This document shows, piece after piece, positions 128-63,982 of a DNA stretch of 63,982 nucleotides. The position numbers were made by a program, and so were the translations under genes. The stretch is from a virus: the IMG/VR virus record IMGVR_UViG_3300027573_000001, positions 1-63,982 of that record; one strand, given 5' to 3'. Position 1 is the stretch's first letter. Each line of letters opens with the position of its first letter. The notes beneath the pieces are model-generated. The model worked only from the letters and a program-made list of their open reading frames with translations, made no database searches and was not told the DNA's origin.

Positions 128-257
128 AGTGGATGAGAAGCGTAATACTAGATTATGGAAGTTTAGATTGAAAGAGCCGCCGAGAATTAACGGTGTAGCT
201 AATCCTAATGGAGTAGCTGTGCCAACCCCTTTTAAGGTAAGAAATGAGACAGCGTAA
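1..257 (+). CDS. 3' end of the primase-helicase CDS that begins at 61635 (wraps across the window junction)
   Basis: Frame of ATG 61635 stays open to 63982. Position 63856 equals position 1, so it continues in the frame of ORF 27..257 and stops at TAA 255-257. Total 825 aa. Confidence 0.8.
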   Translation, partial: LLEPHSRDMQAFQRQYKNAVVLGKKFWTLHDAMKGMFFVDWEVDEKRNTRLWKFRLKEPPRINGVANPNGVAVPTPFKVRNETA

Positions 258-619: not shown

Positions 620-879
620 CATACGATGAAATGATTACATACGTAATTAATACAGGAGTATATCGCGAAACCTTAGAGCAAGGATTACTGGACGTTAAAG
701 GTAAGGGCCATAGTCCAGTACAAACTCCGCCCTCCAAGTATATAGTAGAGGCTGACTCAGTAGGTTATACTTGCTCTAGGTGTGGTGGTGTACTGAATGA
801 AATGTACAATAGCAAAGATAGCATTATCTACGGCGGGAGTATGCTCTATGGTACTTGTCACGCAGGTAGCGTACAATAA
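616..879 (+). CDS. Hypothetical protein (CxxC-containing)
   Basis: ORF track 604..879. ATG at 616 forms an ATGA overlap with the upstream stop. Confidence 0.5.
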   Translation: MTYDEMITYVINTGVYRETLEQGLLDVKGKGHSPVQTPPSKYIVEADSVGYTCSRCGGVLNEMYNSKDSIIYGGSMLYGTCHAGSVQ

Positions 880-1256
880 TGCAAATGTTAACAATGATGC
901 CTCAGCACTTATGGGTTTTTCGTGCTAGAGTAGAAAGGGTTATTGATGGAGATACTTTAGACGTAACTATTGATTGGGGATTTCATTCTTCTAAAGTAGA
1001 ACGTATACGACTATTAGGAATTAATACACCAGAGAAAACTGGTTCAACACGAGTGGAAGGAATAGCTGCACAGGAATTTACTAGCTTGTGGTATGCTAAT
1101 GCGTTACATATGGCAAAGTGGCCTCTCATTATTCAAACAGAAAAGTCCGATGCATTTGGTAGGTACTTAGCTACAGTGTGGCGTATTATAGACGGTGCGT
1201 GTCTAAATGACGATTTAATTACAGAGGGTATGGCTGTTATTGATATACGTAAGTAG
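879..1256 (+). CDS. Staphylococcal-nuclease-like (thermonuclease) protein
   Basis: RVIDGDTLDV ... RIRLLGINTPE ... FGRYLA, the typical SNase motif order. Confidence 0.8.
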   Translation: MQMLTMMPQHLWVFRARVERVIDGDTLDVTIDWGFHSSKVERIRLLGINTPEKTGSTRVEGIAAQEFTSLWYANALHMAKWPLIIQTEKSDAFGRYLATVWRIIDGACLNDDLITEGMAVIDIRK

Positions 1257-1261: not shown

Positions 1262-1320
1262 AAGCGGCGGTAGTCGCTACGCGCTACTATACCCCCTGTG
1301 CAATGCGGTTTTTGAGATAC
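1262..1320 (-). repeat. Dispersed motif copy F (core CCCTGTGCAA 1294-1303 on plus; CGCTACGCG mini-hairpin 1275-1283)
   Basis: Reverse complement reads TATCTCAAAA..GCATTGCACAGGGGG..GCGCGTAGCG, matching the other copies. Confidence 0.8.
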
Positions 1321-1976: not shown

Positions 1977-2143
1977 TTATTACGACTAAGAATGGTAAAC
2001 CTTACATGAGTAGCTGTCACAAGGTTATGCCGTTAAAGCGTATAGATACTAATAGCCTGAAAGAACGTGCTCAGCGATTGGCTGAGAAGCATAAGAAATC
2101 ACTTAAAATTTTAGAAGAAAGTGATAAAAGAGTAAATGGTACT
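1973..2143 (+). CDS. Hypothetical 56-aa protein (below ORF-track cutoff)
   Basis: ATGA overlap with the upstream stop; manual translation MIITTKNGKPYMSSCHKVMPLKR...; ends within the polymerase start. Confidence 0.3.
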
Positions 2144-4613
2144 AGCTGAGGCACAAACACACGTATACGGATCACAATGCCACTCGAATGGTATTCGAGG
2201 ATATGGTAATGCTAATGCAGAAATTATGTTCCTCGGAATCGCGCCAGGGCGTGATGAAGTACGTAAAGGTACGCCGTTTACTGGTCCTAGTGGGCAGTTA
2301 CTTAATAGTGTTCTGCATAGTGTTGGTCTTGAAAGAGATAGTGTCTATTGCACCAACCTTATCTGCTACTGGAAAAATGATCCGACGCCGTCTGAACAAG
2401 CGCCGTGCAGAGAACGCCTCAAAGCAGAGATTAAAGGCATTGGGCCTAAAGTCATATATCTTCTTGGAGCCATAGCTACTGAGGCTTTTGTAGGTCGAGT
2501 GCTTGCAGGTAAGAATGGTGCGCGTGGTGCAGTTATATGGAGTGAAGAATACCAAGCATATCTGATTCCTACATATCACCCGTCTGGTATTCTTCAAGGA
2601 TTAAATGACAGACATGGTAAGGATAGTAGAGGCGGAGAGTTTATCTATGACTTATATCGTGACTTAAAGAAGTGGAATTATGTACGTGAGTGGGGTTCAG
2701 GAATTACAAGTGATCCTACTCCTGGAGGCGGATCGCCATTAGCACAAATAACGTATGAGGTATTAAATGCTGAGGGTAGCAATGATAGTATCTCAGCTAA
2801 AATTAATGCTTTTCTGGATTTACTACCAAGAAATAGTCCAGTCGCCTTTGATGTGGAAACTTATAATCCTTCCCCTGATACTATTGACGTGTGGGGTGAT
2901 ACTCTACTGTGTTTTAGTATATCTACTAGTGAGAGAGCATGGGTCTTTCCGCTTGAACTAATTGAGCGAATGAAAGAACCAGAAGTAGCTAGTCAAATTC
3001 ACTGGCCTAACGATATTCAGTGGACATTCCACAATGCACAATTCGATACACAGATTATAAAGAAGAATCTTGATATATGGCTTACAGTTCATGAAGACAC
3101 TATGCTTATGTCATATAGTCTTGATGAGCGTGGTGGTGTGCATGGATTAAAGACATTAGCACGTGAGTATCTAGGTGCAGGATGGTGGGAGCAAGTACGA
3201 GAAAAGGGTAAGAAGCGGCTTAGTGAAATACCACGAGAACTATTGTACGAGTACAATGCTAAGGATGCGTGCTATACGGCTCGACTTGCAGAGTACTTTA
3301 AGCCACTACAAGAGGCTGACAACGTTCGACAAGTATATGAGAACATACTTATACCAGCCGTTAATGCTGTAAAAGAAGTTCAGTATCGAGGCTTTAAAAT
3401 TAGTCGTAAGAAGCACATGCAGTTTGCTATTGAATGGGGTAAGCTGTATTTAGAACTAGAAGAAAAGCTACAACAAATGGCTCGGGACAATGGATGGGAA
3501 GGTGAACTAAATTTACAGTCTCCGATACAGATTAGCAAGTTTCTATATACATATCTTAGCTTACCTATTAAGAAGATGGGCAAGACTGTAGCATCAACTG
3601 ACATGGAAACGCTAAAGGAATTAGCTGGACTACATGAATTTGTTGACGAGTTTATTCGATATAGACATGTAGCTAGGTATTATGATACTTACATTACAGG
3701 GTTCGGTAAACGTATTAAGGAAGACAGTCGAGTACACGCATACGTTAAAATTCACGGTGCTCGTACAGGACGATGGAGTTATGGCGACCCTCCACTACAA
3801 ACCATCCCCCAAACCTACGAAAAAGAAGGAGTAGAAGAAGACTTCCAGCAAACTAGAGAAATGTTCATACCGTCTACTAAAGATCATGTGATCCTTGAAG
3901 TAGACTATGGTAAGGGGGAGATTTGGTGTGGGCAGGCTCTTAGCGGTGATCCTGTCATGCTTGAAGACCTTATGAGTGGAGATTATCACAGTAAGGTAGC
4001 ATCAGATACTCAGGGAATACCATTACAGGAAGTAAACAAAGAACATAGATTCAAGGCTAAGAAAACAACATTTGGAGTTATGTATGCGATCGAAGCCAAC
4101 AGTCTTAGCAAGCAGATTAAAGTCTCTAAGCTCGAAGCTCAAATATACATTGACCGATTCTATCGGCGTTACCCTACTTATACTAAATACGTCGAGTGGG
4201 TCAAGAAGCAAGTCTTACAGTTGGGGGAACTGGTTTCTAAAACAGGAAGAAAGCGAAGATTCTTCATACTGGACAGTGGTGTACGCGCCCTCAAACAAGC
4301 CGTTAACTATCCAATTCAGTCGGCTCTTGGTGACTTCACAGTACTATCGTATATATACTTACACAATGAGTTTAAGGCTAGGAGTCTGGACGCGCACGTT
4401 CTCGTACAAGTACACGACAGCCTTGTTTTCGAGGTCCACAAATCCTGCTTGGACGAAGTTACTACATTAGTTCATGATGTTATGACAAAGAAGTGGTTTT
4501 CTAATTTTCCACGCTTGCCAGTAGAAATGAGCATGGGGCCAAATTGGGGTAAGACTAAAGGTTTCCATGACTGTGTGTTGAAAGGATGTGTAAATGAGTG
4601 GGCGAGTACCTGA
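2136..4613 (+). CDS. Fusion of family-4 UDG-like domain, 3'-5' exonuclease and family A DNA polymerase
   Basis: N-terminus GIAPGRDEVRKGTPFTGPSG and YHPSGIL (UDG family 4 motifs). Exo region FDVETY / NAQFDTQ. Pol A motifs VDYGKGEIW, RFKAKKTTFGVMY, QVHDSLVFE. Confidence 0.9.
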   Translation: MVLAEAQTHVYGSQCHSNGIRGYGNANAEIMFLGIAPGRDEVRKGTPFTGPSGQLLNSVLHSVGLERDSVYCTNLICYWKNDPTPSEQAPCRERLKAEIKGIGPKVIYLLGAIATEAFVGRVLAGKNGARGAVIWSEEYQAYLIPTYHPSGILQGLNDRHGKDSRGGEFIYDLYRDLKKWNYVREWGSGITSDPTPGGGSPLAQITYEVLNAEGSNDSISAKINAFLDLLPRNSPVAFDVETYNPSPDTIDVWGDTLLCFSISTSERAWVFPLELIERMKEPEVASQIHWPNDIQWTFHNAQFDTQIIKKNLDIWLTVHEDTMLMSYSLDERGGVHGLKTLAREYLGAGWWEQVREKGKKRLSEIPRELLYEYNAKDACYTARLAEYFKPLQEADNVRQVYENILIPAVNAVKEVQYRGFKISRKKHMQFAIEWGKLYLELEEKLQQMARDNGWEGELNLQSPIQISKFLYTYLSLPIKKMGKTVASTDMETLKELAGLHEFVDEFIRYRHVARYYDTYITGFGKRIKEDSRVHAYVKIHGARTGRWSYGDPPLQTIPQTYEKEGVEEDFQQTREMFIPSTKDHVILEVDYGKGEIWCGQALSGDPVMLEDLMSGDYHSKVASDTQGIPLQEVNKEHRFKAKKTTFGVMYAIEANSLSKQIKVSKLEAQIYIDRFYRRYPTYTKYVEWVKKQVLQLGELVSKTGRKRRFFILDSGVRALKQAVNYPIQSALGDFTVLSYIYLHNEFKARSLDAHVLVQVHDSLVFEVHKSCLDEVTTLVHDVMTKKWFSNFPRLPVEMSMGPNWGKTKGFHDCVLKGCVNEWAST

Positions 4614-5393: not shown

Positions 5394-5404
5394 TACAAGT
5401 ATCC

Positions 5405-5463
5405 TTAATAATATCTTTTATCTTAAAACTCGCTTTGCACAGGGGTTAGGTAGCGCGAAGCGT
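5405..5463 (+). repeat. Dispersed motif copy A (TATCTTTTATCTTAAAA, core TTGCACAGGG 5435-5444, GCGAAGC mini-hairpin 5455-5461)
   Basis: Read directly; 18 nt upstream of ATG 5481. Confidence 0.85.
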
Positions 5464-5480
5464 AATAAAAAGGGGGTTGT

Positions 5481-15600: not shown

Positions 15601-17897
15601 TTAAGTCTAGCATCACGCTCTTGCTCAATCTGGTTTAGTCTAGCATCTCCTTCAACCTCAATAGTGTCTAATGTTACACGTTCTTCTTCTTCAAGCTGAC
15701 GTAAACGAGTTGTATGCTCAGCCTTTAATGCGTTTTGTCTATCTTCTATATCATTAATAATTAATTGACTAGCTGCCTTAGACGCTTCTACTTGCGACTC
15801 GTAAGCGTCATTTATTATTTGTAATTGTTCTTGGTAAGCTTTCTGTACTGCTTGGGTTTCAGCCTGTAAAGCTTTTTCTACATTTCCTTGTCGGGACTCT
15901 AATGCTTCTAGTTCTTGTTCTTGTCTATCGCCTATTGCTCGATCTTCTAACTCACGACGACGATCAACACCCTCATTCTGTGCATCTAACGACCGATCTT
16001 CTAATTCACGCTGGCGCTCTATCTGGGCTAGACGTGCTTCTATACGTCGATCTTCTTGTATTCTAGCATTCTCTCTGGCTTTCTCTTGATCTTCTATACT
16101 CTCTAATGCATTATCACGTACTTCCTCAGCAGCCTGTAACTCTTTTTCTTTAGTATCTTCTGCTTGATCTAATCTAGATTGGAAGTACTTTTCCCTACGT
16201 GACTCTTCTATTTCTATATTTGCTAAAGCATTGTCACGAGTCTCATCAGCAGCACGCATTGCTAAGTCTTTAGCACGCTGCTGTTCAGCTATTTGTGTTT
16301 CTACAGCATCTACTATTGCGTCTTTCTCAGCATCCAAAGCTTCTAGCGTATTGTCTCTAGTCTCTTCTGCTAACTCTTTACGCTTATCTCGTGCAATTTC
16401 TTGCTGTGATATTTGCTCTTCCGCAGCTTTTATTACAGCTTCTTTTTCTACTTCTAAGCCACGAACAGCATTCTCTTTATTAGTTTCAGCAGTCTTTAAT
16501 TTCTCATCACGCTCGACACGTAGCTGAGTCATCCTCGCGTCGTGAGCATCATCCTCAGCACGCTTTTCATCTTCTAGAGCTTTTATCGCTCCATCTTTTC
16601 TATCTTCCGCTGCTTGTATAGCAGCATCCTTCGCGAATCCTGTTTGCTTTACTACATTATAATAGCGTTCGTCTTCCATCCGCATCTCTGCTTGTAAAGC
16701 AGCTTGAATGGACTCATTTCTTTCTTTGTTAGCTTTCTCCTGTGCAGTTAAAGCTGCTTTTAATGCAGTTTCAAATCTATCAAGTGCTTGCTTTTGCCTA
16801 GCCTCGTTATCCTCACCCTCTTGTAGAGTTGGACCAATAAATCCAGGCTCACCAGGAAACGGATCACGAGCCCCAGCTGCCGCTGCTTCTAAAGCATCTA
16901 ATTGTCTAATATATTCTTTTAATTCAGCAGTGGCTGCTATCCAATTACCAGCATGCTTAATTAATAAAAGATTAAATTGGGAAATAATATCCATAGCTTT
17001 TTGCTGACGAGCAGAATCAGTTATAAGTTTTGTCATAGCATTAGCGACATTAGTCATAGGAGGAAGTACTATTTGTAAAGCCTGATTAAGTTTTCCTCCT
17101 ATAGATTGACTTAGCTCAATAGTCGCTTTATTCCAAGCATCATATGTACCTAAGTCACTTTTAGCTCTATCTGTAATAGCACTTTGATACTGTAGTGACT
17201 GCTTTTGCGCTTCTGCTAAAAGTAGCTGTGCCCTTTCCGAATCTGATAAAGTATAGAAATGCTTACGTTGTGCTTCTGTCATTAAGCCAACGTTACGTAC
17301 AAAGTCTCGACCTAGAGTTAGGCCAAGCTTTTCCACAGCCTCACCCTCACCACGGATAGCTGCTTGAATATCTCTAGCAGACTGCTCCATATCTCTACCA
17401 CTCTTAGCAGAATATGCAGCAGTAAGTGTAGTAAGAGTCTTAATTTGATCGCTAGTCAAAGCATAGTTTTGCCGCAAGACTCCAAATGCTGTAATGCTGG
17501 CTTGAACCTCAGATGTGGCTCTATTAGTTTGTTTTCCTAAAGCTTCAGCAAATCTAGTATATTCAGAAGCTGAAGACTTGTAAGTTTGCGCTAATTCAAA
17601 CTGGACCTGTTGAAGTTTTATATTTGCAGCAACTGCCTCTGAAGTTACTTTGACTACGCCTTGTAGTCCTACACTAACACCAGCTAGAGCAGCACCAAGA
17701 GCTATAGCCGAGCCAGTGACACCCTTAAAAGAGGCACCTAGAGTATTACTACTCCCAGATGCTTGATTAATAGCAGTAGCTATTTTAGCAGACGACGCTC
17801 TAGCCGCAGCCTCACTCTGAGCAAATGCACGAAGCATCTGCTCATTGTTTGCCGTCATTAAGAATTCAGCTGCACCCAGACCGTATCTGTTTGCCAT
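12660..17897 (-). CDS. Tail tape measure protein (1745 aa) with C-terminal M23 peptidase and SLT lytic transglycosylase domains
   Basis: Long E/R/K-rich coiled coil. HRGIDL...HLHYEV (M23, about 13480-13780). RQESANF...GIAQFT...AYNAGEG (SLT, about 12990-13260). Confidence 0.9.
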   Translation of the reverse strand: MANRYGLGAAEFLMTANNEQMLRAFAQSEAAARASSAKIATAINQASGSSNTLGASFKGVTGSAIALGAALAGVSVGLQGVVKVTSEAVAANIKLQQVQFELAQTYKSSASEYTRFAEALGKQTNRATSEVQASITAFGVLRQNYALTSDQIKTLTTLTAAYSAKSGRDMEQSARDIQAAIRGEGEAVEKLGLTLGRDFVRNVGLMTEAQRKHFYTLSDSERAQLLLAEAQKQSLQYQSAITDRAKSDLGTYDAWNKATIELSQSIGGKLNQALQIVLPPMTNVANAMTKLITDSARQQKAMDIISQFNLLLIKHAGNWIAATAELKEYIRQLDALEAAAAGARDPFPGEPGFIGPTLQEGEDNEARQKQALDRFETALKAALTAQEKANKERNESIQAALQAEMRMEDERYYNVVKQTGFAKDAAIQAAEDRKDGAIKALEDEKRAEDDAHDARMTQLRVERDEKLKTAETNKENAVRGLEVEKEAVIKAAEEQISQQEIARDKRKELAEETRDNTLEALDAEKDAIVDAVETQIAEQQRAKDLAMRAADETRDNALANIEIEESRREKYFQSRLDQAEDTKEKELQAAEEVRDNALESIEDQEKARENARIQEDRRIEARLAQIERQRELEDRSLDAQNEGVDRRRELEDRAIGDRQEQELEALESRQGNVEKALQAETQAVQKAYQEQLQIINDAYESQVEASKAASQLIINDIEDRQNALKAEHTTRLRQLEEEERVTLDTIEVEGDARLNQIEQERDARLNQLEEERDVRLNQIEEEKRATLGAIQEEKRARLDEFDSRIRAVNSLQRAFAGENKITDLTQSLTIAERKGDVTEVRRIEEEIRRERIRQSYETAEEILKVEKDAVSDELSLLEDQLQDEFKLREDAAKKEFKNREEQLKAEYELAEATIKAEYDLRESTAKLRFDNLKILLTDEVAARRASLDEEKEAARVNLEDQLNLLKNHIEQQRTELEIGRDAQVALLKERTDAVKLNFEAEKEAVRDRYEAYSRAVSDQRYAEDQAFEARKLNIEDQRAREDAEHERQMELLADRRKQEDDALEGRKEKITEAYESERDEVNETYERTVDALKERQREEKENFDNRKKVVAQAYDDEKKRLQDLYDDPVDGILARLRKNKEETQKQYAEKARIVHSAYEAEQKDIKATYDDPLTGSIPALKRAIDNARESYAERTRLVEEGYKREIEAIKTVYDHPVDGLLAKQEEMHKRAKAAYDERTRIISEAYDAEKRKIHDVYDGPEGLITRNEEAHRRIRQGIENQRIWWNSWERDTNQSIRNVMDGPLRDFINKINELEQRGLIAPGFQRPDDGRPGRRGGGMDGGGGVGASSGGQFNTLFPYNAPYNGPFAGGAMWANGPSRHRGIDLTLPGPNGGRGTPLGAFTDADVVNTTSESAGGEGFITRMRDTGLYEYYGHLDNVSVKAGDRLTRGQLIGTLGATGLEPWNTPHLHYEVRKSPGGDPVGSTIDPVPYMGGFINPLGGASIGGTGEILELHPFGPNGPVVVIRVRATDWESKARQIAQNENFSDPELFGRQMRQESANFDPDVITGRRQSSAGAKGIAQFTDGTARMLGVNVYDPIDSLTKAARYMHYLERRYSGLHGNPGVRNALWAYNAGEGSLQEGYMPGETRRYLEIIQGYQHGKNIVEPTLMVGLRTGEMGIAGETGQPERLLGTTATANYNNGNDGPMQSIQIPVLIGNEQIQNIMIYGLKLMAKTGRNVGVPGLRV

Positions 17898-20240: not shown

Positions 20241-20313
20241 TATCTTAAGCTCATTGCACAGGGCTGGGCCTAGCGCCCGAGCGGTTAAATCCCTAACGCC
20301 GCGCTTATATTCA
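20241..20313 (+). repeat. Dispersed motif copy D (core TTGCACAGGG 20254-20263; GCGCTTATATTCAC tail)
   Basis: Read directly; plus orientation inside the minus-strand operon. Confidence 0.8.
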
Positions 20314-26813: not shown

Positions 26814-27170
26814 TTACGGAGCAAAAGCTATGTCGCCTTTACCTACAGTTGTTTCTATTCCATTCGCCTCTTCTACATGTACCCTACAACGATACGTAGT
26901 TTTAATAGTTATAGGATCAGTGTCTTCTGGATTTATAGCTACTATTACTACACCGTCTTCTGAGGTACCTTCTAAAGCTATACCAGCACCTAGAGACTTT
27001 CCTATACTCTGTACAGGAGCAGCAGCATCAGGTAAAGCTAATGTAGCACTAAATGTAACTGTAGCTCCAGTTAAGTCTACTGGCGTAGATACGCCATTTA
27101 CTGTACGTACTATTGGTACACGTATGAATACTGTATCACCACGTACTAAGTCAAAATAAAAATCAGACAC
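26814..27170 (-). CDS. Ig-like (BppU-type) domain small protein, putative
   Basis: FDLVRGDTVFIRV...PVDLTGATVTF pattern. Confidence 0.45.
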   Translation of the reverse strand: MSDFYFDLVRGDTVFIRVPIVRTVNGVSTPVDLTGATVTFSATLALPDAAAPVQSIGKSLGAGIALEGTSEDGVVIVAINPEDTDPITIKTTYRCRVHVEEANGIETTVGKGDIAFAP

Positions 27171-30100
27171 GAGTTACACTCGCAGTCGCGTTGTTATGTA
27201 AGGTAATATCGGCTGTTCTCTGGTTTACCAATGTTATATTAGCTGTAGGAGTAACTAGCACAATTATTATTTCCGCAGTACTCGACATCCCTAGCAAAAA
27301 GCCTGTAAACGTTACGCTAGTTGCTCGTCCTGCTACAAACTGTGTCTTTAATTGACTTGCGCCTCTAATATTACTAGTAGATTGTCTATTAGCTATAAAC
27401 TGTGATCTTAATCTAGCTAAGTTACGGATATTAGTAGTGGATTGCCTATTAGCTATAAACTGTGATCTTAATGTAGCCGAATTACGAATTATTGAAGTGT
27501 TAGACCTGTTCGGCACAGTAGCTATAGCCATATGCCCATATGAAGTTGTTATTATAATAGTAGTACTAGCTCGTAGTCCAACACTACGTATGTGTGATCG
27601 TGTACGTGTAGATGTAGTGCTACTTGATCCACGTATTGCGGTAGAGGTCATACGCCCTATAGCGCGTAATGCAGCAACACCTTCCGTACCAATAACTGTA
27701 AGAGTAGTAGATGCTATACGTGCTCGACCATGTATACGTGCTAATGCAGTGCGAGCACTAGTAACAACTAAACGTGAATCAACCGTTCCACGTTCACTTG
27801 CAATACCAGCAGAGGCTTTCGTAGCTTGTATAGTAGCTCGTATAAAGGAACGTAACGCTGTTGTAGTAGTACCAGCATGTACACCAGCAGTAATAGATCG
27901 GCCAAAGCTCCGTATGTTAGTTACGGTTGCAGTCGCTTTTACTCCTGAATTGACAGCATGTGTAGCCGCACGTATGGATGCAGTAGTTATACTGTTTCGT
28001 GTGACTACTATTATTTCTCGAAGAGACGTACTATGTATACGCGCAGTATTTGTACTAGCTTTAATACTAGTTGTAATTAGCCGCGCTGTACCTTGTATAC
28101 GAGCAGTGTTAGCTACAGCTTTTGTAGCAATTATGGATTGACGTATTGTACCACGTATACTTATAGTAGAAGATACTGCCTTTGTACTAGCCGTTAGTAA
28201 TCGACCTACTGCATGTATTCGCGTGGTATTGAATGCCGCCTTTGTACTAGTAGTTACAGCCCTATTTGTTGTATGTATTCGAGTGGTATTGGATACTGCC
28301 TTTGTACCAACACTTAATAGTCGGCCTACTGCATGTATCCTAGCATTAGAAGTACTAGCCGCATCCTTTATTGCAATATCAGATAGCCTACCTAATCCAT
28401 GTATACGAATAGTATTTGATACTGCTTTTGTAGCACTAATAACATCTCTGCTTAATCCATGTATACGAGCAGTATTTGATACTGCCTTTGTAGTACTAGT
28501 GATATTTCTGCCTAATCCATGTATACGAATAATAGTTGATACTGATTTCGTACTGACATCAGATAGCCTACCTGATCCGTGTATCCGAATAGTATTTACA
28601 GCTCCCTTTGTAGTACTAGTAATATTTCTACTTAATCCATGTATAAGAGTAGTATTTGCTACTGCTTTTGCAGCAACGTCAGACAGTCTACTTAATCCAT
28701 GTATACGAGTAGTATTTGCTACTGCTTTTGCAGCATTAGCAATACTTCTACCTGATCCATGTATACGAGTAATAGTTGATACTGCTTTTGTACTAACAAT
28801 ACTGGACCTACTTGCGCCATGTATACGAATCGTGTTTGCAGCTACTTTTAAGCTAATATCAGAGAGTCGCCCTAATGCGTGTAATCGAATAGTATTAGAT
28901 GCTGCCTTTAATCCTAGAACTACCTCCCTACCTGATCCTTGTATACGAGTAGTATTTGCTACTGCCTTTGCTGCTATTGCTATTACTCGCTGTGTACCTC
29001 TTATGGAAGTAGTAACTGTACCAGCATGAACACCTGCTGTTACTGAACGGCCATCTCCTAATAGAGTTGCTGGTAAACCAGCGCCTACTGCATTTATTCC
29101 TGTAAGTCGTAAAATCGGTCCGCTACCAGACTCAGGGTCAGACTGTGCTTTATCACCTAGACTAATATATGCTTGTGTACCATCAGGACTCCAGGTAAGT
29201 CTACCTACTACGTACCCTTCATATGGAGCAGGAGGTATCCCACTACCATCTTGATGTTGATGCCCAGGAGCATAATTAACGAATGTTAGACGACGCTTAT
29301 TTGCACCTGTACTATCCATAAGCCATATGTCCATAGGTAGCCTATCGATAAATGTATTATCTCTATTCGAAGCCCACGCAATTACTCTTGGAGTAGTTGG
29401 TGAGTAATGAGCATGTTCATCCCAATTGAACAATTCTCCCGACTGACCATGAGAACCTACCAAACGAGTTACATTTGTGCCATCTAAGTCACAAATGAAT
29501 ATGTCCAATGTTTCTTGTACGTGATTAGCAACAGCTACGTTACCTGTAAATATTATTTTATATACACCAGCACCTAGTCCTGGTATAAATTCATGAGTTT
29601 CATAGAATTTACCCTCAGGGGTAGGGTCAACAATAACTGGTGAGATGTTTGCAACTGATGATAATGTAGGTACTCCACCAGGCCAGCTTAATGTAGCGGT
29701 ATTAATTCTCCAGTATCCATATGGTGCATTAGCATCTGCTGCTGATCGTAAGCTAGCCCATGCTACACGTAAGCCATCTTGGCTTACGCAAGGTTGTAGG
29801 CTACCTATTGAGCCATCAGTATCATATTGCCATACACGAGTATGTCCTGTGCCATCTGCTGCACATACCCATAAATCACAATGCCAGCCTTGTCCTGGTG
29901 TCCCTGGTAGCGATGGCCCATCACGCTGAGCCATGTATAAGATATATGTACCTACAGTTGGACGTGTAAACCAAAATCCGTTTCCACAGTGCGATTGCGG
30001 CGCACCAGAAACGCCATATGTTAAAGCAACTTTGTTGCTTACGAAATCAGAATCAACAGCATACATGTGGAAAGTAAGAGTACCGCCAATATCAACATGT

Positions 30101-30339
30101 TCACTATAGAGTACCCTATTAGAGCCTAAATGATCCCAACGTGGGGCCGATGCTCTTGGATGTACCATATGAGCGGATACAAATACACCCTTACTACCAA
30201 ATGACTTTATTTGTCCGTTAGCATAAAAACCTGCTGCTCCAGACGTAGCAGGTGCAGTCGAACCTGCAAACGGAGTAGTACGTCTATGTGGTTGCGGTTG
30301 GTAAGGAGTACGAGTAGGTTGCGGACGAAATAAAGACAT
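27163..30339 (-). CDS. 1058-aa protein: TolB/PD40-like beta-propeller N-terminal half plus about 28 tandem 20-aa repeats
   Basis: DIWLMDSTGANKRRLT, LTWSPDGTQAYISL and VSQDGLRVAWAS (PD40-like). Repeats TKAVSNTTRIHGLGRLSDVS. Confidence 0.8.
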   Translation of the reverse strand: MSLFRPQPTRTPYQPQPHRRTTPFAGSTAPATSGAAGFYANGQIKSFGSKGVFVSAHMVHPRASAPRWDHLGSNRVLYSEHVDIGGTLTFHMYAVDSDFVSNKVALTYGVSGAPQSHCGNGFWFTRPTVGTYILYMAQRDGPSLPGTPGQGWHCDLWVCAADGTGHTRVWQYDTDGSIGSLQPCVSQDGLRVAWASLRSAADANAPYGYWRINTATLSWPGGVPTLSSVANISPVIVDPTPEGKFYETHEFIPGLGAGVYKIIFTGNVAVANHVQETLDIFICDLDGTNVTRLVGSHGQSGELFNWDEHAHYSPTTPRVIAWASNRDNTFIDRLPMDIWLMDSTGANKRRLTFVNYAPGHQHQDGSGIPPAPYEGYVVGRLTWSPDGTQAYISLGDKAQSDPESGSGPILRLTGINAVGAGLPATLLGDGRSVTAGVHAGTVTTSIRGTQRVIAIAAKAVANTTRIQGSGREVVLGLKAASNTIRLHALGRLSDISLKVAANTIRIHGASRSSIVSTKAVSTITRIHGSGRSIANAAKAVANTTRIHGLSRLSDVAAKAVANTTLIHGLSRNITSTTKGAVNTIRIHGSGRLSDVSTKSVSTIIRIHGLGRNITSTTKAVSNTARIHGLSRDVISATKAVSNTIRIHGLGRLSDIAIKDAASTSNARIHAVGRLLSVGTKAVSNTTRIHTTNRAVTTSTKAAFNTTRIHAVGRLLTASTKAVSSTISIRGTIRQSIIATKAVANTARIQGTARLITTSIKASTNTARIHSTSLREIIVVTRNSITTASIRAATHAVNSGVKATATVTNIRSFGRSITAGVHAGTTTTALRSFIRATIQATKASAGIASERGTVDSRLVVTSARTALARIHGRARIASTTLTVIGTEGVAALRAIGRMTSTAIRGSSSTTSTRTRSHIRSVGLRASTTIIITTSYGHMAIATVPNRSNTSIIRNSATLRSQFIANRQSTTNIRNLARLRSQFIANRQSTSNIRGASQLKTQFVAGRATSVTFTGFLLGMSSTAEIIIVLVTPTANITLVNQRTADITLHNNATASVTRV
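27310..29050. repeat. Tandem 60-bp intragenic repeat array (about 28 degenerate units)
   Basis: Units stay in register with the 60-column sequence layout (for example lines 28381-28741 share ..atccatgtatacga..agtatttg.tactgc.tttg). Confidence 0.9.
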
Positions 30340-36507: not shown

Positions 36508-36600
36508 CTAGTTCTTAAAGAAGCACTTAGTACATACCCACTTAGTTTCATTTTTCTTAATTAAGCCATTAGTATGTATACCACATAGAGAGCATTGCAT
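36508..36600 (-). CDS. 30-aa zinc-ribbon micro-ORF (MQCSLCG...CTKCFFKN)
   Basis: AGGAG 9 nt upstream of the ATG; CxxC...CxxC; first ORF after the candidate late promoter. Confidence 0.3.
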   Translation of the reverse strand: MQCSLCGIHTNGLIKKNETKWVCTKCFFKN

Positions 36601-36620
36601 AGTTCTCGACTCCTGTACAC

Positions 36621-36629
36621 AGTATATCA
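36621..36629 (-). promoter_or_regulatory. Extended -10 promoter candidate (TGaTATACT) for the late/structural operon
   Basis: Reverse complement of 36621-36629; no good -35; embedded in the CCTGTACA..TGTACAGG inverted repeat 36611-36638. Confidence 0.4.
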
Positions 36630-36690
36630 CATGTACAGGCTGCGTGCGGTATATGTTTTTCTTTATGTTTTTCCAATAATAAATGCAGTA

Positions 36691-36719
36691 TTGTTTTTTC
36701 GCGGGAATCGTGCTATACT
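36691..36719 (+). promoter_or_regulatory. Sigma70-type promoter TTGTTT-17-TATACT (with TGc extension)
   Basis: Read directly; followed by AGGAGAG SD and ATG 36739. Confidence 0.55.
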
Positions 36720-36738
36720 GTCTATAGCAGGAGAGCGC

Positions 36739-37296
36739 ATGGCAGATATATATTATATTTCAGACTCAGCATACGAAAAGTTATTACAGTTAGCCTCTGA
36801 CCAGGGATTTACTAAGTTTCATTACAAGTCCCACAGAGGCTTATCAGATTTTCTAAACAAACTAAGTTATAGTGAATTTATTGATACTAGATCGGAATTT
36901 ATTAAAGAACGACATAGTAAATTACTAAAGGAACATCGACGGCCACAGTGGGCACACGGACTATCTCCTAAGCTACCACGTTGTCTAACATTAACTGACG
37001 AAGCAATATATAATTATGTAGAAACAGCTTTAAGGCTAAAAATACATTTATTGCGTAGACTAGTACGTGGAGGGCAACCGAATCGAAGTGCCGTAGCTAT
37101 TTGTGGATTAGCTTTAGAAGCTTTAGGAGCTGGTTTTATACATCCAGTACAAGTACCAATCTGGTCTGCACCAGCAGGCTCGCCAGTAGTAAGAAGTAAC
37201 AAGAGTAGCCCAAAATCTATTACAGACTCTTCTCTACTAGAAAATCCGTACATAATCTACTTAAGAAAAATACCAAAGAAAGTAGCAGAAGGTTAA
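36739..37296 (+). CDS. Hypothetical protein with RHH-like N-terminus
   Basis: IYYISDSAYEKLLQLASDQG...GLSDFLNKL; paralogous N-terminus in the next gene. Confidence 0.55.
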   Translation: MADIYYISDSAYEKLLQLASDQGFTKFHYKSHRGLSDFLNKLSYSEFIDTRSEFIKERHSKLLKEHRRPQWAHGLSPKLPRCLTLTDEAIYNYVETALRLKIHLLRRLVRGGQPNRSAVAICGLALEALGAGFIHPVQVPIWSAPAGSPVVRSNKSSPKSITDSSLLENPYIIYLRKIPKKVAEG

Positions 37297-37297
37297 A

Positions 37298-37783
37298 ATG
37301 GAAGAATATCAAGTGTGGAGACAAGCACAGGGATTAGCACGCGCCACTCCAAAATACCCAAAACGTTCTCGACCATTTTTTGTATCCGATAACGCTTTTG
37401 AGGGGCTACATAGACTTGCCGAGCAATTTGGATTAATGCATGGTACTAAGCCATCAGCTAGTGGATTAGTAGAAGCCATTGGCTTGAATACTATTCTAGT
37501 ATATCAAGAAGAAGAGACAGACTCAGGTTATGGTTCAGCAGCATATGTAGATACTGACGGACTTACAGTATCACAATGCTTTGAATTAGGTAAAGAAGAC
37601 TACATAGAAAAAAGGCCGATGGCTTTTAGCACATCGGCCCTTGCAGGAGGAAGGAAACGGTCTAGAGTCTTTGTAGAAGCCTATGTTAAAGGCTATACTA
37701 CTGGATTCATAGACGACGAAGTTAGCTATGAACCAAACTCATTTGAAGCGTTATTTGAGACTAACACCCCTTCTAATGAGTGA
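37298..37783 (+). CDS. Hypothetical protein with RHH-like N-terminus (paralog of 36739..37296 N-terminus)
   Basis: PFFVSDNAFEGLHRLAEQFG...SGLVEAIGL. Confidence 0.55.
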   Translation: MEEYQVWRQAQGLARATPKYPKRSRPFFVSDNAFEGLHRLAEQFGLMHGTKPSASGLVEAIGLNTILVYQEEETDSGYGSAAYVDTDGLTVSQCFELGKEDYIEKRPMAFSTSALAGGRKRSRVFVEAYVKGYTTGFIDDEVSYEPNSFEALFETNTPSNE

Positions 37784-38095
37784 TTCTGCAATACGCTGCG
37801 CGTCACGCTGTCGCTGCTGTGCCCTATGGTCGTCAAGCAACCTACGCTGAATATCATACCTATCGCGTGCGCGCTGGCGTGCAGCTTCTTTTGCCTCTTC
37901 TGGTGTACTATACTTACGCGGACGGCCTCGACGCTCTACTTGGTTACGCTTTTCTTCTTCCAAGTCATACCCCGTATATTGCGCTAATGCTTCACGAATA
38001 ACGCACGTTAGAGACTTATCCCCTCTTTGTGCAAATTTATCTGCATGATCTCGTTGTTCCTCACTTAGTTTAACGGTGATAATTACTTTTGCCAT
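37751..38095 (-). CDS. Ribbon-helix-helix (CopG-like) protein with basic tail
   Basis: KVIITVKLSEEQRDHADKFAQRGDKSLTCVIREALAQY; its 3' end overlaps 37298..37783 by 33 nt (convergent). Confidence 0.6.
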   Translation of the reverse strand: MAKVIITVKLSEEQRDHADKFAQRGDKSLTCVIREALAQYTGYDLEEEKRNQVERRGRPRKYSTPEEAKEAARQRARDRYDIQRRLLDDHRAQQRQRDAQRIAESLIRRGVSLK

Positions 38096-38239
38096 ACCAC
38101 CCCCACACAGTAAGCATACCACAGAAAAGCGGCAATGTCAATAAAACAGAGATTGCAATTTCGTTACAAAAAGGTATTACTTTTTCTTATATAAGGTATA
38201 ACGATTTGTTATACCTGTTGGACTGAAAGGATATTATTA

Positions 38240-38431
38240 ATGAATATAGAACCAAAGACTTTCATTTGTGACTCTTGTGGAGAAGAAAGCATAGCAGAGA
38301 GGTCAGAAGAAGAAGTCATACAGGAATATGAAAATAATTTTCAGAGGCCATTCAACAAAGAAGATGCCGCTGCAATTTGTGATGATTGCTACGATAAATT
38401 CATGTCTTGGTATAGACAACAATCTTCTTAA
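38240..38431 (+). CDS. Cys-rich small acidic protein
   Basis: CDSCGEE...CDDC; SD AGGA upstream. Confidence 0.5.
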   Translation: MNIEPKTFICDSCGEESIAERSEEEVIQEYENNFQRPFNKEDAAAICDDCYDKFMSWYRQQSS

Positions 38432-38565
38432 TAATATCTTTTATCTTAAAATTGCGAGTAGCACAGGGGCTGGGTCTGGGCTACGCCCGTAAACTACAGG
38501 TGTTTTGAATATTTAACTTGTACACAAATGGGCTGATCTAGGGGCGGCGCTTATATTCAGAGATA
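38427..38565 (+). repeat. Dispersed motif copy B, long form (core variant TAGCACAGGG 38459-38468; GGCGCTTATATTCAGAGATA tail)
   Basis: Aligns along its length with copy C. Confidence 0.85.
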
Positions 38566-38589
38566 CACGCAGGAAGGTAATAACTAAAA

Positions 38590-38742
38590 ATGGACGCTAA
38601 AGTAAAAGACTTTTTTAATTTTAAAGTAAATTGCCCTAGTAATGGCGCATTTCACTGTGAATGTTACTACGCAATTATGAGAGACGACGATGGCAAGCTA
38701 ATACATCGACAGTGCTGTTACTGCGACGCTGAGCCAGAATAG
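38590..38742 (+). CDS. Cys-rich 50-aa protein
   Basis: Manual translation MDAKVKDFFNFKVNCPSNGAFHCECYY...CCYCDAEPE. Confidence 0.4.
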   Translation: MDAKVKDFFNFKVNCPSNGAFHCECYYAIMRDDDGKLIHRQCCYCDAEPE

Positions 38743-38750
38743 GAGAGAAC

Positions 38751-38930: not shown

Positions 38931-38951
38931 GCATAAGATATGGGTGAAGGA

Positions 38952-39206: not shown

Positions 39207-39315
39207 ATAAGTGCGAGTACACGTAACTGAACACACAGTTTTTGTAGTTCTCACTGTTTAAGTCGAAAGCTGTGGTAAGTAGAGAGTCTATAGACAGCTG
39301 AAAGATTTATAGTCC

Positions 39316-39451
39316 CTTAATAATATCTTTTATCTTATAATTGCCTTTGCACAGGGTCCGGGTGTAGGGCGTAGCCCGTAAATGGTAGGAATCGTAAAAC
39401 TTAACTTGTACATGAGGGTTTGACGCGGGGCCGCGCTTATATATCGAGATA
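39316..39451 (+). repeat. Dispersed motif copy C, long form (core TTGCACAGGG 39347-39356)
   Basis: Aligns with copy B. Confidence 0.85.
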
Positions 39452-39547
39452 GCGATTAGGGATTAATGAATATAGAACAGCACGGACATACGTATACTGA
39501 TAGCCTGCACGTGAACGGCGAGGGGCGAGTGAGGGCACAGAGGCGCA

Positions 39548-41110: not shown

Positions 41111-41112
41111 GT

Positions 41113-43547: not shown

Positions 43548-43604
43548 TACACACTCCTGGTCACGTTTGTTTCGTTCTGACAATGCTTCAAACATGCACG
43601 GTTC

Positions 43605-43650
43605 GACCGCTCGCGGCCACTCTGTACCCTGTGCAAAGAGCTAAAGATAC
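43605..43650 (-). repeat. Dispersed motif copy I (core CCCTGTGCAA 43627-43636 on plus)
   Basis: Reverse complement reads TATCTTTAGCTCTTTGCACAGGGTACAGAGTGGCCGCGAGCGG; upstream of the helicase gene. Confidence 0.8.
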
Positions 43651-46279: not shown

Positions 46280-46324
46280 GCTAGTTTTATTATTCCTTTA
46301 CATTAGCAAATATGTATCACGGAA

Positions 46325-46375
46325 TCTCGGCTGCGCGAGCTACCCTGTGCAAATCGCAAACTTGCGATATGAGAT
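46325..46375 (-). repeat. Dispersed motif copy G (core CCCTGTGCAA 46343-46352) abutting the palindrome ATCGCAAACTTGCGAT (46353-46368)
   Basis: Read directly. Confidence 0.75.
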
Positions 46376-46514
46376 CGCAATAATGCTAATTTTGAGATAA
46401 AACGTTTTATGCCGAAATTTGAGATAAAACCTTTTTGTAGAACATATGTGCTCCGCGGCAAGTGTAGCAAATTTGCACTCTCATATCTAACTTTTAGACT
46501 AGAACATATGTTTG

Positions 46515-50800: not shown

Positions 50801-50804
50801 ATTT

Positions 50805-50850
50805 GCCGCTACGCGCTACAACTACCCTGTGCAACGGCGAACAAATGTTC
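50805..50850 (-). repeat. Dispersed motif copy H (core CCCTGTGCAA 50825-50834; CGCTACGCG 50807-50815) fused to the LexA-like box CGAACAAATGTTCT (50838-50849 core)
   Basis: Read directly. Confidence 0.75.
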
Positions 50851-50875
50851 TTATTCTCCAAAAAATAATACATAC

Positions 50876-60951: not shown

Positions 60952-60954
60952 TCT

Positions 60955-61012
60955 TTATAATATCTTTTATCTTAGAATTCGCTTTGCACAGGGCCTAGCT
61001 CGCGCAGCGTAA
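60955..61012 (+). repeat. Dispersed motif copy E (core TTGCACAGGG 60984-60993; CGCGCAGCG 61001-61009)
   Basis: Read directly; upstream of ATG 61041. Confidence 0.85.
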
Positions 61013-61040
61013 TTCGTAGTACTACCAAAAGGATAGCGTA

Positions 61041-61634: not shown

Positions 61635-63982
61635 ATGAAGTTAGCCGAATTTCTGGAAGAAGTAGTAACTGGTGGAGAGGGCTGGTTTAACCTTTGCCAC
61701 GCGAAAGCTAATGGTACAGGATGGAAAGAAGAGTGGTTCAGATACCCTAATCAGCTTAACGATATATGTAGTAGAATAGGCCAGCTAAAAGCAGAAAATG
61801 TATACTTCTCACCGTACTTGTTTGAGACGAAACAAAGTACAAAAGAGGCTGCGATTGTCGGTCGGACTATAGTCGCCGATCTAGACGATGCTAATGTATT
61901 AACTATTCAACCACGACCTAGTATACTTGTGCAAACAAGTGCTGGAAGGCATCAAGCATATTGGATACTAACTGATGCTCTTTCTCGTAATGCTCATGAA
62001 CACCTTAGCAAGCGCATCACTTATGGTATTCCTGCTTGTGACCGTACAGGATGGTTTATCGGCAAAAGGGTTCGCGTTCCTGGAACTAACAATTATAAGT
62101 GGGATCGTGACAGTGATATCGTTAGAGTGCTTCCTTCAACACATAAACAACATACAGCGGCAGACTTCCAACACTTACCAGAAATCCCTACACGATCAAC
62201 TAATTCAAATGAAGAGGCTGGAGACGCAGATAATTTTATTAGAGACGCGCTTACAGTCAGTAGCGGCCCTCAGGAATTCTTAGAGAAAGTACGCAGCAAG
62301 TTACCACCTAAAGTAGTTACACAGTATAACTTTGAGGCAAGGGACCGTAGTGCTGCACTGTGGACACTGAATATAGCAGCTTTCCGTGCAGGACTAAGTT
62401 CTAAGGAAGTATTCTTCTTAGCACGAGGTAGTGCTAATAATAAGTTCACCAGTCTCCGATTCAACGGCGATGTTGAATTGATGAAGGATGTTCTGCGTGC
62501 ACAACAACAAGTGTACAGCGAGCATATGTCTGGTGATTACAGAGAAAAGATTAAAGAGATTAGGCGGTTTCCAGGATTGGGACACGAGAAGCTAGCTTAC
62601 CTTGCACAAACAGTTAGAGAGAACATGAAAGCTCGCGGACAGTTCATCAACTGTGCCGATGGTACTTCATGGTTCATAGACAATGTACTTGGTAAGCCTA
62701 TGGCGGTTCTAGCTCGCTCAGAAGCTCTACAAACAACACTGGATGCATGGTATGGACTCAATCCTATTGAACGCGAATCAGCATACACTATTGGTCACTT
62801 ATCGTCCTACGTAGCTGGTCTGCCTCCTGTGGGTAGACTCGCTGCGCTATCCTACTATGACATGGACACGAATGCACTGTACCTGCATACTGGACGCAAG
62901 GAAGTTCTCAGGGTTACTTCACGAGACATTACTACAGTTACAAATGGCTATGACAGCTTAGTATTCCATTGGGCATCTTTAAATGAAACAATTAATCCTC
63001 ACTACAAGCACTATGACACTAAATGGGAGGATATTCTCTTCGAGAACGCTTTAGACAATATGATAGGATTGAAGATAAGTGAAGCTAAAGCGTTGCTCAA
63101 AGTGTGGATGCTTATGCTGTTGCTCAGAAGCTCTGTCGTCACGCGTCCTATACTCTGTATCTTTGGTCAACCTGGTGCTGGAAAAAGTACTTTATTCAGG
63201 CGTGTATATACTCTTCTTTATGGGAGGGGTCGCAGCCTTTCTAGTATTACTACTCCTGATAACTTTGATTACGCAACGGCTTCTGATCCTTTGGTAGTAT
63301 TTGATAATGTTGATACATGGGAACGGTGGCTACCTGATAGACTTGCCCTCGCTGCGGCGGTTAGCGAAGTCAAGAAGCGAAAACTGTATACTAACAATGA
63401 CACAATTACTCTTACTAGACAAGCATTCATCGGTCTTACAGCCCACAACCCAAAATTTGGGAGAGAGGATGTTACGGACAGACTTATTATCCTCACTCTC
63501 GAACGACTCAAAAAGTTCGACAGCGAGACAGATATTCTAGGGTATATACATAGCAATCGTAGCACCATTTGGGGACTAATTATTCAAGACATCCAGAAAA
63601 TCTTAAGTACGGAAGTACCTGTTAGTGGATTCACAGACTTTCGTATTCAAGACTTTGCTCGTTACGGAGCTTGGATAGCAAAAGCAGTAGGTATATTAGA
63701 CGAGTTTAACTCGGCACTTGCTACCATAGTTTCGGAACAGAAGACATTTGCTATGGAGGAAGATGGCTTATTACTTGATGCACTGTATAAGTACTTAACT
63801 ATTAAGCACAACTCGAATGAGGAACAAGTATTCCGCCCGCCGAGTAATTGGTGGGCATTACTAGAGCCCCACTCTAGGGATATGCAGGCATTCCAGAGAC
63901 AGTACAAGAATGCTGTAGTTCTAGGAAAGAAGTTCTGGACGCTCCATGATGCAATGAAAGGAATGTTCTTTGTAGATTGGGA
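61635..63982 (+). CDS. Primase-helicase: RepB'-like primase/prim-pol N-terminal domain plus VirE/D5-like P-loop helicase (runs off the window end and continues at 1..257)
   Basis: Manual translation: VYFSPYLF, VADLDD, SAGRHQAYW, RVPGTNNYK. Walker A IFGQPGAGKST; Walker B PLVVFDNVD. No in-frame stop to 63982. Confidence 0.8.
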   Translation, partial: MKLAEFLEEVVTGGEGWFNLCHAKANGTGWKEEWFRYPNQLNDICSRIGQLKAENVYFSPYLFETKQSTKEAAIVGRTIVADLDDANVLTIQPRPSILVQTSAGRHQAYWILTDALSRNAHEHLSKRITYGIPACDRTGWFIGKRVRVPGTNNYKWDRDSDIVRVLPSTHKQHTAADFQHLPEIPTRSTNSNEEAGDADNFIRDALTVSSGPQEFLEKVRSKLPPKVVTQYNFEARDRSAALWTLNIAAFRAGLSSKEVFFLARGSANNKFTSLRFNGDVELMKDVLRAQQQVYSEHMSGDYREKIKEIRRFPGLGHEKLAYLAQTVRENMKARGQFINCADGTSWFIDNVLGKPMAVLARSEALQTTLDAWYGLNPIERESAYTIGHLSSYVAGLPPVGRLAALSYYDMDTNALYLHTGRKEVLRVTSRDITTVTNGYDSLVFHWASLNETINPHYKHYDTKWEDILFENALDNMIGLKISEAKALLKVWMLMLLLRSSVVTRPILCIFGQPGAGKSTLFRRVYTLLYGRGRSLSSITTPDNFDYATASDPLVVFDNVDTWERWLPDRLALAAAVSEVKKRKLYTNNDTITLTRQAFIGLTAHNPKFGREDVTDRLIILTLERLKKFDSETDILGYIHSNRSTIWGLIIQDIQKILSTEVPVSGFTDFRIQDFARYGAWIAKAVGILDEFNSALATIVSEQKTFAMEEDGLLLDALYKYLTIKHNSNEEQVFRPPSNWWALLEPHSRDMQAFQRQYKNAVVLGKKFWTLHDAMKGMFFVDW
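63856..63982. repeat. Terminal direct repeat (copy of 1-127)
   Basis: Identical sequence. Confidence 0.95.

Follow-up and report, generated by a model that had tools for sequence, protein, structure and literature searches.

The window analysed here, the whole 63,982-nucleotide (nt) stretch of IMG/VR record IMGVR_UViG_3300027573_000001, derives from a tailed phage with a double-stranded, circular 64-kb genome, and carries a dispersed cassette in nine copies, all of them intergenic (Table 1). In order, the cassette comprises an AT-rich TATCTYAAAA box, the core TTGCACAGGG, a spacer of 4–14 nt, a short G+C hairpin and a purine-rich 3′ flank. Our preferred reading, offered tentatively and with somewhat less than even confidence, is that the core and mini-hairpin form a priming signal for the RepB′-like primase of the phage, possibly exposed by the adjacent promoter-like box.

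An earlier sequence-only reading of this DNA had proposed the motif, and its nine core positions (1294, 5435, 20254, 38459, 39347, 43627, 46343, 50825 and 60984) are correct. The exact core occurs in seven window copies, and the copy at 38459 has TAGCACAGGG. With up to one mismatch, the window holds 10 core matches against 2.97 expected, a number reached by none of 100 shuffles. A covariance model of core plus hairpin puts the nine copies at the top of the window (E 7e-12 to 0.025); an intragenic site at 19527 (E 0.12) falls outside the set, and a degenerate intragenic copy suggested at 47471 (E 1.2) is not supported. The proposed intergenic placement holds for 9/9 copies, while intergenic DNA makes up 11% of the genome (P about 3e-9), and, of all 8-mers, those of the cassette recur in the largest number of intergenic gaps, without a competing intergenic motif. 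Searches of Rfam returned no family at gathering score besides tRNA genes, and no match up to E 5 overlaps any copy; the cassette is a member of no curated RNA family. An exact-pattern scan of viral contigs gave 62 single matches, approximately the chance level, of which only the locus L015 belongs to a relative, and a literature search for the 10-mer core turned up primers only.

A TATCT(T/C)-type box precedes eight of the nine window cores (all except 50825) at a spacing of 7, 10, 11 or 41 nt, consistent with the earlier description of a preceding TATCTT(A/T)AAA. An extended form, CTT(A/T)ATAATATCTTTTATCTTANAAT, is nearly invariant in window copies 5435, 38459, 39347 and 60984 (class I) and in two copies from relatives (L229 at 7120 and L015 at 706); in these it spans 22–25 nt and ends with TANAAT 5 nt ahead of the core. 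The shorter boxes of the remaining copies stand 7, 10 or 41 nt from the core, and copy 50825 has a palindrome instead. Relatives also possess a different AT box, TAWWCAATTG, at 6 nt, with an 18-bp palindromic operator ahead of it. Core positions G3-C-A-C-A-(G/A)-G9 are invariant in all copies of all phages, and this conserved 10-mer lies 5′ of the hairpin in every copy, separated from it by the variable spacer.

The hairpin belongs to a specific class. In 15 of 22 clade copies, the motif strand carries the canonical mini-hairpin, GCGNAGC or GCGNNAGC, no more than 35 nt from the core (background 1.2%, p about 3e-24), and 13/22 satisfy a strict definition with three or more G-C pairs and a G..A loop (background 0.4%, p about 3e-26); the complementary T..C loop is found in one copy only, a ratio of 13 to 1. 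A strand-specific mini-hairpin is part of the cassette. Within the window, the sequence-only reading had placed a C/G-clamped triloop after the core, which is accurate for the six copies with GCGNAGC on the motif strand, whereas the loop is inverted in 38459 and different tetraloop hairpins occur in 20254 and 43627. The two loop-proximal pairs are always G-C then C-G, and only the outer pairs vary (CGC/GCG, GGGC/GCCC, CGGC/GCCG, ACAGGC/GCCTGT); stems are 3–6 bp, the hairpin lies 14–24 nt downstream of the core start, and a U tract is absent. Triloops outnumber tetraloops, and one relative (L068) has exactly GCGGAGC. Nearest-neighbour folding energies of the cassette regions are no better than those of shuffles (z about 0), which argues for selection on this specific mini-hairpin class rather than on bulk stability; nor did the folding z-scores point to a longer conserved RNA or DNA structure, a two-sequence alifold comparison being uninformative. 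A review reports that mini-hairpins are far more stable as DNA than as RNA, and gives their natural uses as the G4 primase site, RSF1010 ssiA and the N4 promoters (PMC13037366).

Downstream of the hairpin, the 3′ flank is purine-rich, often GTAA, in a loose register: G-(T/C/A)-A-(A/T) stands at the 3′ base of the hairpin in ~11/18 copies. Long copies carry an additional block, (G)CCGCGCTTATAT, 35–85 nt downstream, which they have in common with the relative L063; the 3′ ending GCGCTTATAT described earlier was found at 20301, 38547 and 39433. A terminator after the cassette is not general, as only the L063 copy at 17261 has one.

The presence of the cassette in related phages, which the earlier reading had left as a check, was borne out in every close relative retrieved (terminase at least 59% identical): L015 (DNA 83–88% identical), L229 (polymerase 86%), L230 and L068 (72% and 78%), L063, L064 and L232 (terminase 71%), L065–L067 (67%) and L072 (59%). 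It was absent from ~85 loci of more distant terminase relatives scanned by model or core search, a scan that left out 80 further genome loci. The cassette is restricted to one phage clade. Three positions are kept across phages although the outer stems differ: sense, upstream of a dGTP-pyrophosphohydrolase-like gene (window 5435, L229, L230, L232); antisense, upstream of the polymerase region (window 1294, L015, L229, L232); and antisense, between two tail genes (window 20254, L063 and L072, the assignment in L072 relying on how far the copy lies from the terminase). Within the head module, related antisense copies of L065 and L068 occupy two different sites.

Similar-looking repeats occur in other loci. 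In L073 (terminase 60% identical), two TCGCACAGG repeats at 1036–1078 (minus strand) flank the palindrome GGAACATATGTTCC (GAAC-N4-GTTC) upstream of a dCTP-deaminase-like gene, and the mini-hairpin is absent. The TCGCACAGG repeats of L231 were rejected as the same design, being inside or beside called genes and without hairpins, as were the GCGYGAGC matches of L234, which belong to an unrelated array at 16140–17850 where the boxes G(T/A)GTACC and G(C/T)GAGCC alternate every ~10–12 nt over a long, gene-poor stretch. L065 has direct repeats of ~60-nt units with ATCCATATACTATATTGGTA at 3790–4000 (minus strand).

The candidate partner of the cassette is a primase domain fused to a P-loop NTPase, in an open reading frame (ORF) of ~825 codons that runs from 61635 across the genome junction to 257; it is split by the window ends and was missed by the ORF list. 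On its own, the protein gives Pfam RepB_primase no more than a weak, sub-threshold match (E 2e-4 to 8e-4), but an exhaustive search found 1506 relatives, and 18 of 22 sampled family members match that Pfam family (best E 3e-13). Against the Protein Data Bank (PDB), the family profile retrieved RSF1010 RepB′ as its only meaningful match (3H20/3H25, E 0.005 and 0.013), with the DxD and SP..YQaW catalytic motifs aligned. The AlphaFold model of the primase (pLDDT 90) has RepB′ as its two top fold matches, full length (E 8e-11) and as its DNA complex (2.5e-7), with both domains covered, followed in third place by the cyanophage S-2L PrimPol. Profile and predicted structure together show a RepB′-like fold for the N-domain. 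The family is rare in isolated phages (139/50,697 phage records).

This assignment adds support to a role as priming site, one of several that the sequence-only reading had listed, as the primase is RepB′-like by profile and fold and the hairpin falls in the class of known priming signals. Most primases need a triplet only (PMC8567376). RepB′, described as exceptional in this respect, needs a long signal: it binds six specific nucleotides 5′ of a hairpin (nt 7–27, tip CCGAAGG), and synthesis begins at T32, within a GTG located 3′ of the hairpin (PMC8567376; PMC13037366). No other primase is known to depend on so complex a signal. In outline the cassette resembles the RepB′ signal, with a specific sequence, then a mini-hairpin, then, in loose register, G-T-purine. 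By analogy with RSF1010 ssiA/ssiB, the cassette would work as single-stranded DNA of the motif strand: the primase would bind the specific single-stranded sequence 5′ of the hairpin, the mini-hairpin would keep single-strand-binding protein off the site and position the enzyme, and primer synthesis would begin just 3′ of the hairpin and proceed back across hairpin and core. The AT-rich, −10-like box on the 5′ side may help to open the duplex, either by melting easily or through transcription that displaces the motif strand, in the manner of promoter-dependent origins. Binding, priming, the primer start site, the points at which transcription begins and the function of the AT box are all inferred.

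Placement is consistent with priming insofar as both strands are used (five plus and four minus copies), some copies lie beside iterons and those in the late operon are antisense. A number of features weigh against it. The strongly conserved −10-like AT box is unexplained by a priming signal alone, and palindromic operators abut several copies (ACTAAGTACGTACTTAGT at three L065 copies, AGAACATTTGTTC abutting window 50825 and TTGCGATctcatATCGCAA within 46343), an arrangement that suggests transcriptional control. The spacer of 4–14 variable nt and the stems of 3–6 bp compare poorly with ssiA, where the recognised tail abuts a 21-nt hairpin (nt 7–27); nine dispersed copies stand in place of an inverted pair in one origin; conservation of the 3′ flank is loose (A at +3 in 11/16 copies); and nothing comparable to the motif occurs in Clostridium phage CPAS-15, whose primase is a distant member of this family. 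A combination, in which the AT box fires or melts, the displaced non-template strand folds the mini-hairpin and the core recruits the primase-helicase, would make the cassette a promoter-coupled initiation site; we regard this as unlikely.

The AT box and the operators instead raise the possibility of a promoter with a conserved leader and nothing more, a close rival that we consider possible, if doubtful. A −10-type promoter read by host or phage-modified RNA polymerase would act without a −35 and start transcription at or just before the core, so that core and hairpin would be the first ~30 nt of the RNA or a +1 operator, and would act in regulation, factor binding or the stability of the mRNA; in addition, the cassettes would be recombination points, like the promoter-early stem-loops (PeSLs) of T4-like phages. 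The nearly invariant extended box ends in TANAAT at the right distance for a −10, and hexamers of the form TATAAT, TAGAAT or TAAAAT lie 4–8 nt upstream of the core. The alternative TAWWCAATTG box of relatives, with its operator ahead, the TCGCACAGG repeats around the GAAC-N4-GTTC palindrome of L073, and the leaders of 36–190 nt followed by Shine-Dalgarno sites also fit a promoter. The cassette edges are sharp in non-homologous flanks and adjoin indels, as PeSLs behave (PMC2839356, PMC4122927): copy 60984 and its L015 counterpart have only ~62 nt in common, from the AT box to GCGCAGCGTAAT, within flanks that otherwise do not align, and indels relative to L229 adjoin copies 1294 and 5435.

However, no −35 element lies at 16–18 nt from the −10-like hexamer in the copies, and sigma-70-like sites are not enriched in a consensus scan of 36–52 kb, which agrees with the earlier statement that no sigma70 −35/−10 spacing could be fitted. 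Models of sigma-70, sigma-54, sigma-B-like and Bacteroidota promoters were tried, and none matches the cassette spacings; TTGCAC was likewise rejected as a −35 element, with no −10 found 16–18 nt downstream of it in window copies. Three of the four operon blocks (starts 36489, 36595 and 50927) are not headed by a copy. The 3-bp CGC/GCG triloop hairpins would be marginal as RNA, triloops dominate, and the invariant loop-proximal GC...GC matches the consensus for DNA mini-hairpins (PMC13037366). A promoter with a leader also gives the invariant core no function. The promoter or leader role listed by the sequence-only reading draws support from the −10-like box and the operator palindromes beside some copies.

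Orientation bears on both readings. Seven of the nine window copies point into downstream genes and two are opposed, as had been stated, which would suit a promoter, but the bias is not significant (p = 0.09), and the copies inside the late operon are antisense to their genes in 5/5 phages examined. A two-arm replication model was also rejected: it fits 8/9 copies, but also 60% of random strings, and fails in L066. Orientation statistics do not discriminate between priming and promoter readings.

Two ORF-poor, iteron-rich regions of ~1 kb each (Table 1) are likely to represent an origin or regulatory region. Both contain iterons GGGATATTTACTATACG (a 46-nt tandem at 46508–46599, with copies at 46226–46302 and 50112–50129), palindromes AGAACAnnTGTTCT (46202, ~46437, ~46498, 46646 and 50839), a common block of 37–50 nt (46805–46855 and 50680–50730) and AT-rich short repeats. 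Two window copies on the same strand (46343 and 50825) and one L066 copy lie inside such regions. The palindrome GAAC-N4-GTTC of these regions resembles the Gram-positive LexA box.

If a regulator bound the asymmetric core as a duplex at many intergenic sites, blocking or activating RNA polymerase, the cassette would be stoperator-like and its hairpin incidental, which we judge improbable. Nine intergenic copies of an asymmetric 10-mer, conserved across the clade and in places adjoined by palindromic operators, recall the 13-bp asymmetric stoperators found in short intergenic spaces (PMC9283540). Strict orientation would then be expected, whereas 2/9 window copies and every late-operon copy of five phages are reversed; the strand-specific mini-hairpin that accompanies the core (p about 1e-24) would be superfluous for a duplex site; and no integrase or repressor was recognised in ~50 ORFs scanned, among which many small ORFs have no match. 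The stoperator idea of the sequence-only reading is accordingly weakened.

As RNA, the linear box and hairpin might load an antiterminator in the manner of a nut site, or mark a processing site, on transcripts from upstream promoters. The layout is like boxA-spacer-boxB, with a conserved core and variable outer stem pairs, and all four canonical GCGNNAGC tetraloops fit GNRA. The core itself is unlike the boxA consensus, the ORFs yielded no N-like protein, terminators show no enrichment, triloops dominate, antisense copies are included and, as noted, no Rfam family overlaps the copies, leaving this possibility quite improbable. It is very improbable that the cassette is a selfish or purely recombinational repeat, a small mobile intergenic element akin to MITEs and REPs that serves nothing except its own spread or the shuffling of modules. 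Such an element would account for the ~62 nt kept within unrelated flanks in copy 60984 and L015, for related copies at different head-module places in L065 and L068 and for the indels adjoining copies, but orthologous positions persist between phages of 60–86% protein identity in spite of differing outer stems, the core stays constant between drifting flanks, and neither a transposase nor terminal inverted repeats or target duplications were seen. Module-boundary recombination, another of the earlier suggestions, may be retained as a side effect only, given the sharp edges in non-homologous flanks.

We find it hardly credible that a phage RNA polymerase reads the mini-hairpin on a single-stranded template, as at N4 early promoters. 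Those promoters have GCGGAGC-type mini-hairpins with 3-nt loops (PMC13037366), L068 has GCGGAGC, and a 1058-residue head-module ORF without detectable homologues might be considered for such an enzyme. Nevertheless, no RNA polymerase or sigma domain occurs in any ORF scanned, the 1058-residue ORF is missing at the equivalent place in L063, L065 and L068, all three of which bear the motif, and a G..A hairpin on the template strand would direct transcription away from 7/9 downstream genes.

Should the promoter-coupled reading prove true, replication of a tailed phage would begin at some nine scattered priming sites, each specified by its sequence; no ssi-type system would have been known before beyond the IncQ plasmids, nor any in multiple copies. 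The pairing, in one phage clade, of a RepB′-fold primase with a dispersed motif of matching design is directly testable in vitro, and a positive outcome would show how some tailed phages select the start sites of DNA synthesis. If the cassette is instead a promoter with a leader, the transcription units of an uncultured phage lineage would be defined by it, and a DNA-type mini-hairpin consensus would have an RNA or promoter role. Under either reading, the cassette marks the clade and is likely to be a point of recombination.

Table 1. Cassette copies and other features of the window (copies are named by the first position of the core as numbered on the plus strand)
Feature	Position	Strand	Components or context
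Copy 1294	1271..1319	−	box TATCTCAAAA 1310–1319; core 1294–1303; hairpin CGCGTAGCG 1275–1283; antisense to replication operon; orthologues in L015 and L229
Copy 5435	5404..5466	+	extended AT box 5404–5429; core 5435–5444; hairpin CGCGAAGCG 5454–5462, then TAAT; upstream of gene at 5481; orthologues in L229, L230 and L232
Copy 20254	20241..20313	+	box 20241–20250; core 20254–20263; variant hairpin CGCCCGAGCG 20274–20283; 3′ block GCGCTTATATTCA 20301–20313; antisense to tail genes; counterpart at same place in L063
Copy 38459, long form	38427..38559	+	extended AT box 38427–38452; core TAGCACAGGG 38459–38468; hairpin GGGCTACGCCC 38478–38488, inverted loop; 3′ block 38547–38559
Copy 39347, long form	39316..39445	+	extended AT box 39316–39341 (has TATAAT); core 39347–39356; hairpin GGGCGTAGCCC 39367–39377; 3′ block 39433–39445
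Copy 43627	43603..43649	−	box 43640–43649; core 43627–43636; variant hairpin CCGCGAGCGG 43607–43616; upstream of UvrD-like helicase
Copy 46343	46322..46399	−	box 46390–46399; 41-nt insert with palindrome TTGCGATctcatATCGCAA; core 46343–46352; hairpin around GCGCAGC 46326–46339; within iteron-rich, ORF-poor region
Copy 50825	50803..50851	−	AT box absent; palindrome AGAACATTTGTTC 50838–50850 abuts core 50825–50834; hairpin CGCGTAGCG 50807–50815
Copy 60984	60953..61013	+	extended AT box 60953–60978; core 60984–60993; hairpin CGCGCAGCG 61001–61009, then TAAT; at head of primase operon
RepB′-like primase (residues 1–312) fused to P-loop NTPase	61635..63982 + 128..257	+	main part and end of one ORF
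ORF-poor, iteron-rich regions	45900–46940 and 49890–50830		~1 kb each
Replication and nucleotide metabolism block	50927 through junction to 5921	+	
Structural and lysis block	36489 down to 5974	−	
Small-gene block	36595–41366	+	
Block of small genes and UvrD-like helicase	~50.8 kb down to 41388	−	
Polymerase with N-terminal UDG-like domain	2136–4613		
ThyX-like protein	53718–54767		
dCTP deaminase	56589–57176		

Window bases 1–127 exactly repeat 63856–63982, and this 127-bp terminal overlap indicates a circular assembly of ~63,855 bp. No near relative was found among isolated phages, and a genome search found no close prophage relative; the family-A polymerase with the UDG-like N-domain is at most 28% identical to those of SPO1-like Bacillus phages. 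The distant relatives L231, L233 and L234 have 7-deazaguanine genes in place of the set of UDG-like, ThyX-like and dCTP deaminase genes, a contrast that hints at modified DNA bases in the lineage. In the head module, the 1058-residue ORF (27163–30339, minus strand) has no sequence match in Pfam, PHROG or PDB. The UvrD-like gene more likely starts at 43547, with AGGAG 7 nt upstream, than at the first ATG (43595, minus strand).

Several local features accompany these genes. An endonuclease gene (phrog_452; 879–1256, plus strand), an insertion relative to L229, directly adjoins copy 1294. Three small cysteine-rich (zinc-ribbon-like) ORFs at 38240–38930 (plus strand) share a short stretch with copies 38459 and 39347, two of them being located between these copies, and MNIE begins the products of both the 38240 ORF and another of 33 codons at 39467. 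A long inverted repeat of ~100 nt at 41235–41379, which gave spurious microRNA matches on both strands, lies in the region of a 15-bp-stem terminator at the convergent junction of two gene blocks. A 28-nt tandem repeat, TGTATAGTATATCTCAAATCATACTAGA in two copies at 41110–41165 (minus strand), has TATCTCAAAT boxes and no core, and a local direct repeat, CATAAACCTACAAATGTAGG, occurs twice at 59520–59570.

Set against known systems, the cassette does not show features that define PeSLs, stoperators, nut sites or N4 promoters. It differs from the lambda nut site in that no N-like protein was found and terminators are not enriched. With N4 early promoters it shares GCGNAGC-type DNA hairpins with 3-nt loops, which serve there as single-stranded recognition elements; unlike in N4, a virion RNA polymerase was not detected among the scanned ORFs, and the orientation would direct transcription away from most downstream genes. 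The stoperators of cluster A mycobacteriophages and the SAS/ESAS of cluster K are likewise short, asymmetric, repeated intergenic motifs that are clade-specific and kept beside unrelated genes. Stoperators, however, are oriented with transcription and lack a hairpin, where the cassette has a strand-specific mini-hairpin, and SAS, which contain the ribosome-binding site, stand only 3–7 bp away from start codons, where the cassette is followed by leaders of 36–190 nt.

PeSLs of T4-like phages are also small, multi-copy intergenic composites of an AT-rich promoter region and a stem-loop, and are tied to indels and gene replacement between close relatives, as seen here for 60984 versus L015 and for 1294 and 5435 versus L229. 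Nevertheless, PeSLs have a near-consensus sigma-70 −35/−10 and a stem-loop that lies within or overlaps the promoter and acts as a terminator, whereas the cassette has no −35, a 10-mer after the AT box, and a tiny GCGNAGC hairpin downstream of the core with no U tract.

Two kinds of priming system were also compared. At the complementary-strand origin of phage G4 and other G4-type priming signals, primase starts on single-stranded DNA at a DNA mini-hairpin (GCGAAAGC), but the enzyme in G4 is host DnaG, the genome is single-stranded and one origin has three hairpins, whereas the window phage is double-stranded and tailed, with its own AEP-type primase and nine sites. With the ssi signals of IncQ plasmids, the cassette shares some, although not all, features. 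RSF1010 has a single inverted pair in oriV rather than nine dispersed copies in a 64-kb phage, and its ssiA hairpin spans 21 nt (nt 7–27) rather than having stems of 3–6 bp. The cassette adds a core-hairpin spacer of 4–14 nt and a conserved 5′ AT-rich box and has no sequence similarity to ssiA, and the phage primase is fused to an NTPase. What the two have in common is a replicon that encodes a primase of RepB′ fold, a strand-specific signal whose hairpin is capped by a GNA mini-hairpin and, for some cassette copies, a position beside iterons. The conserved 10-mer on the 5′ side, set off by its variable spacer, may correspond to the single-stranded sequence that RepB′ recognises, and the G-T-purine found in loose register where the hairpin ends may correspond to the GTG start.

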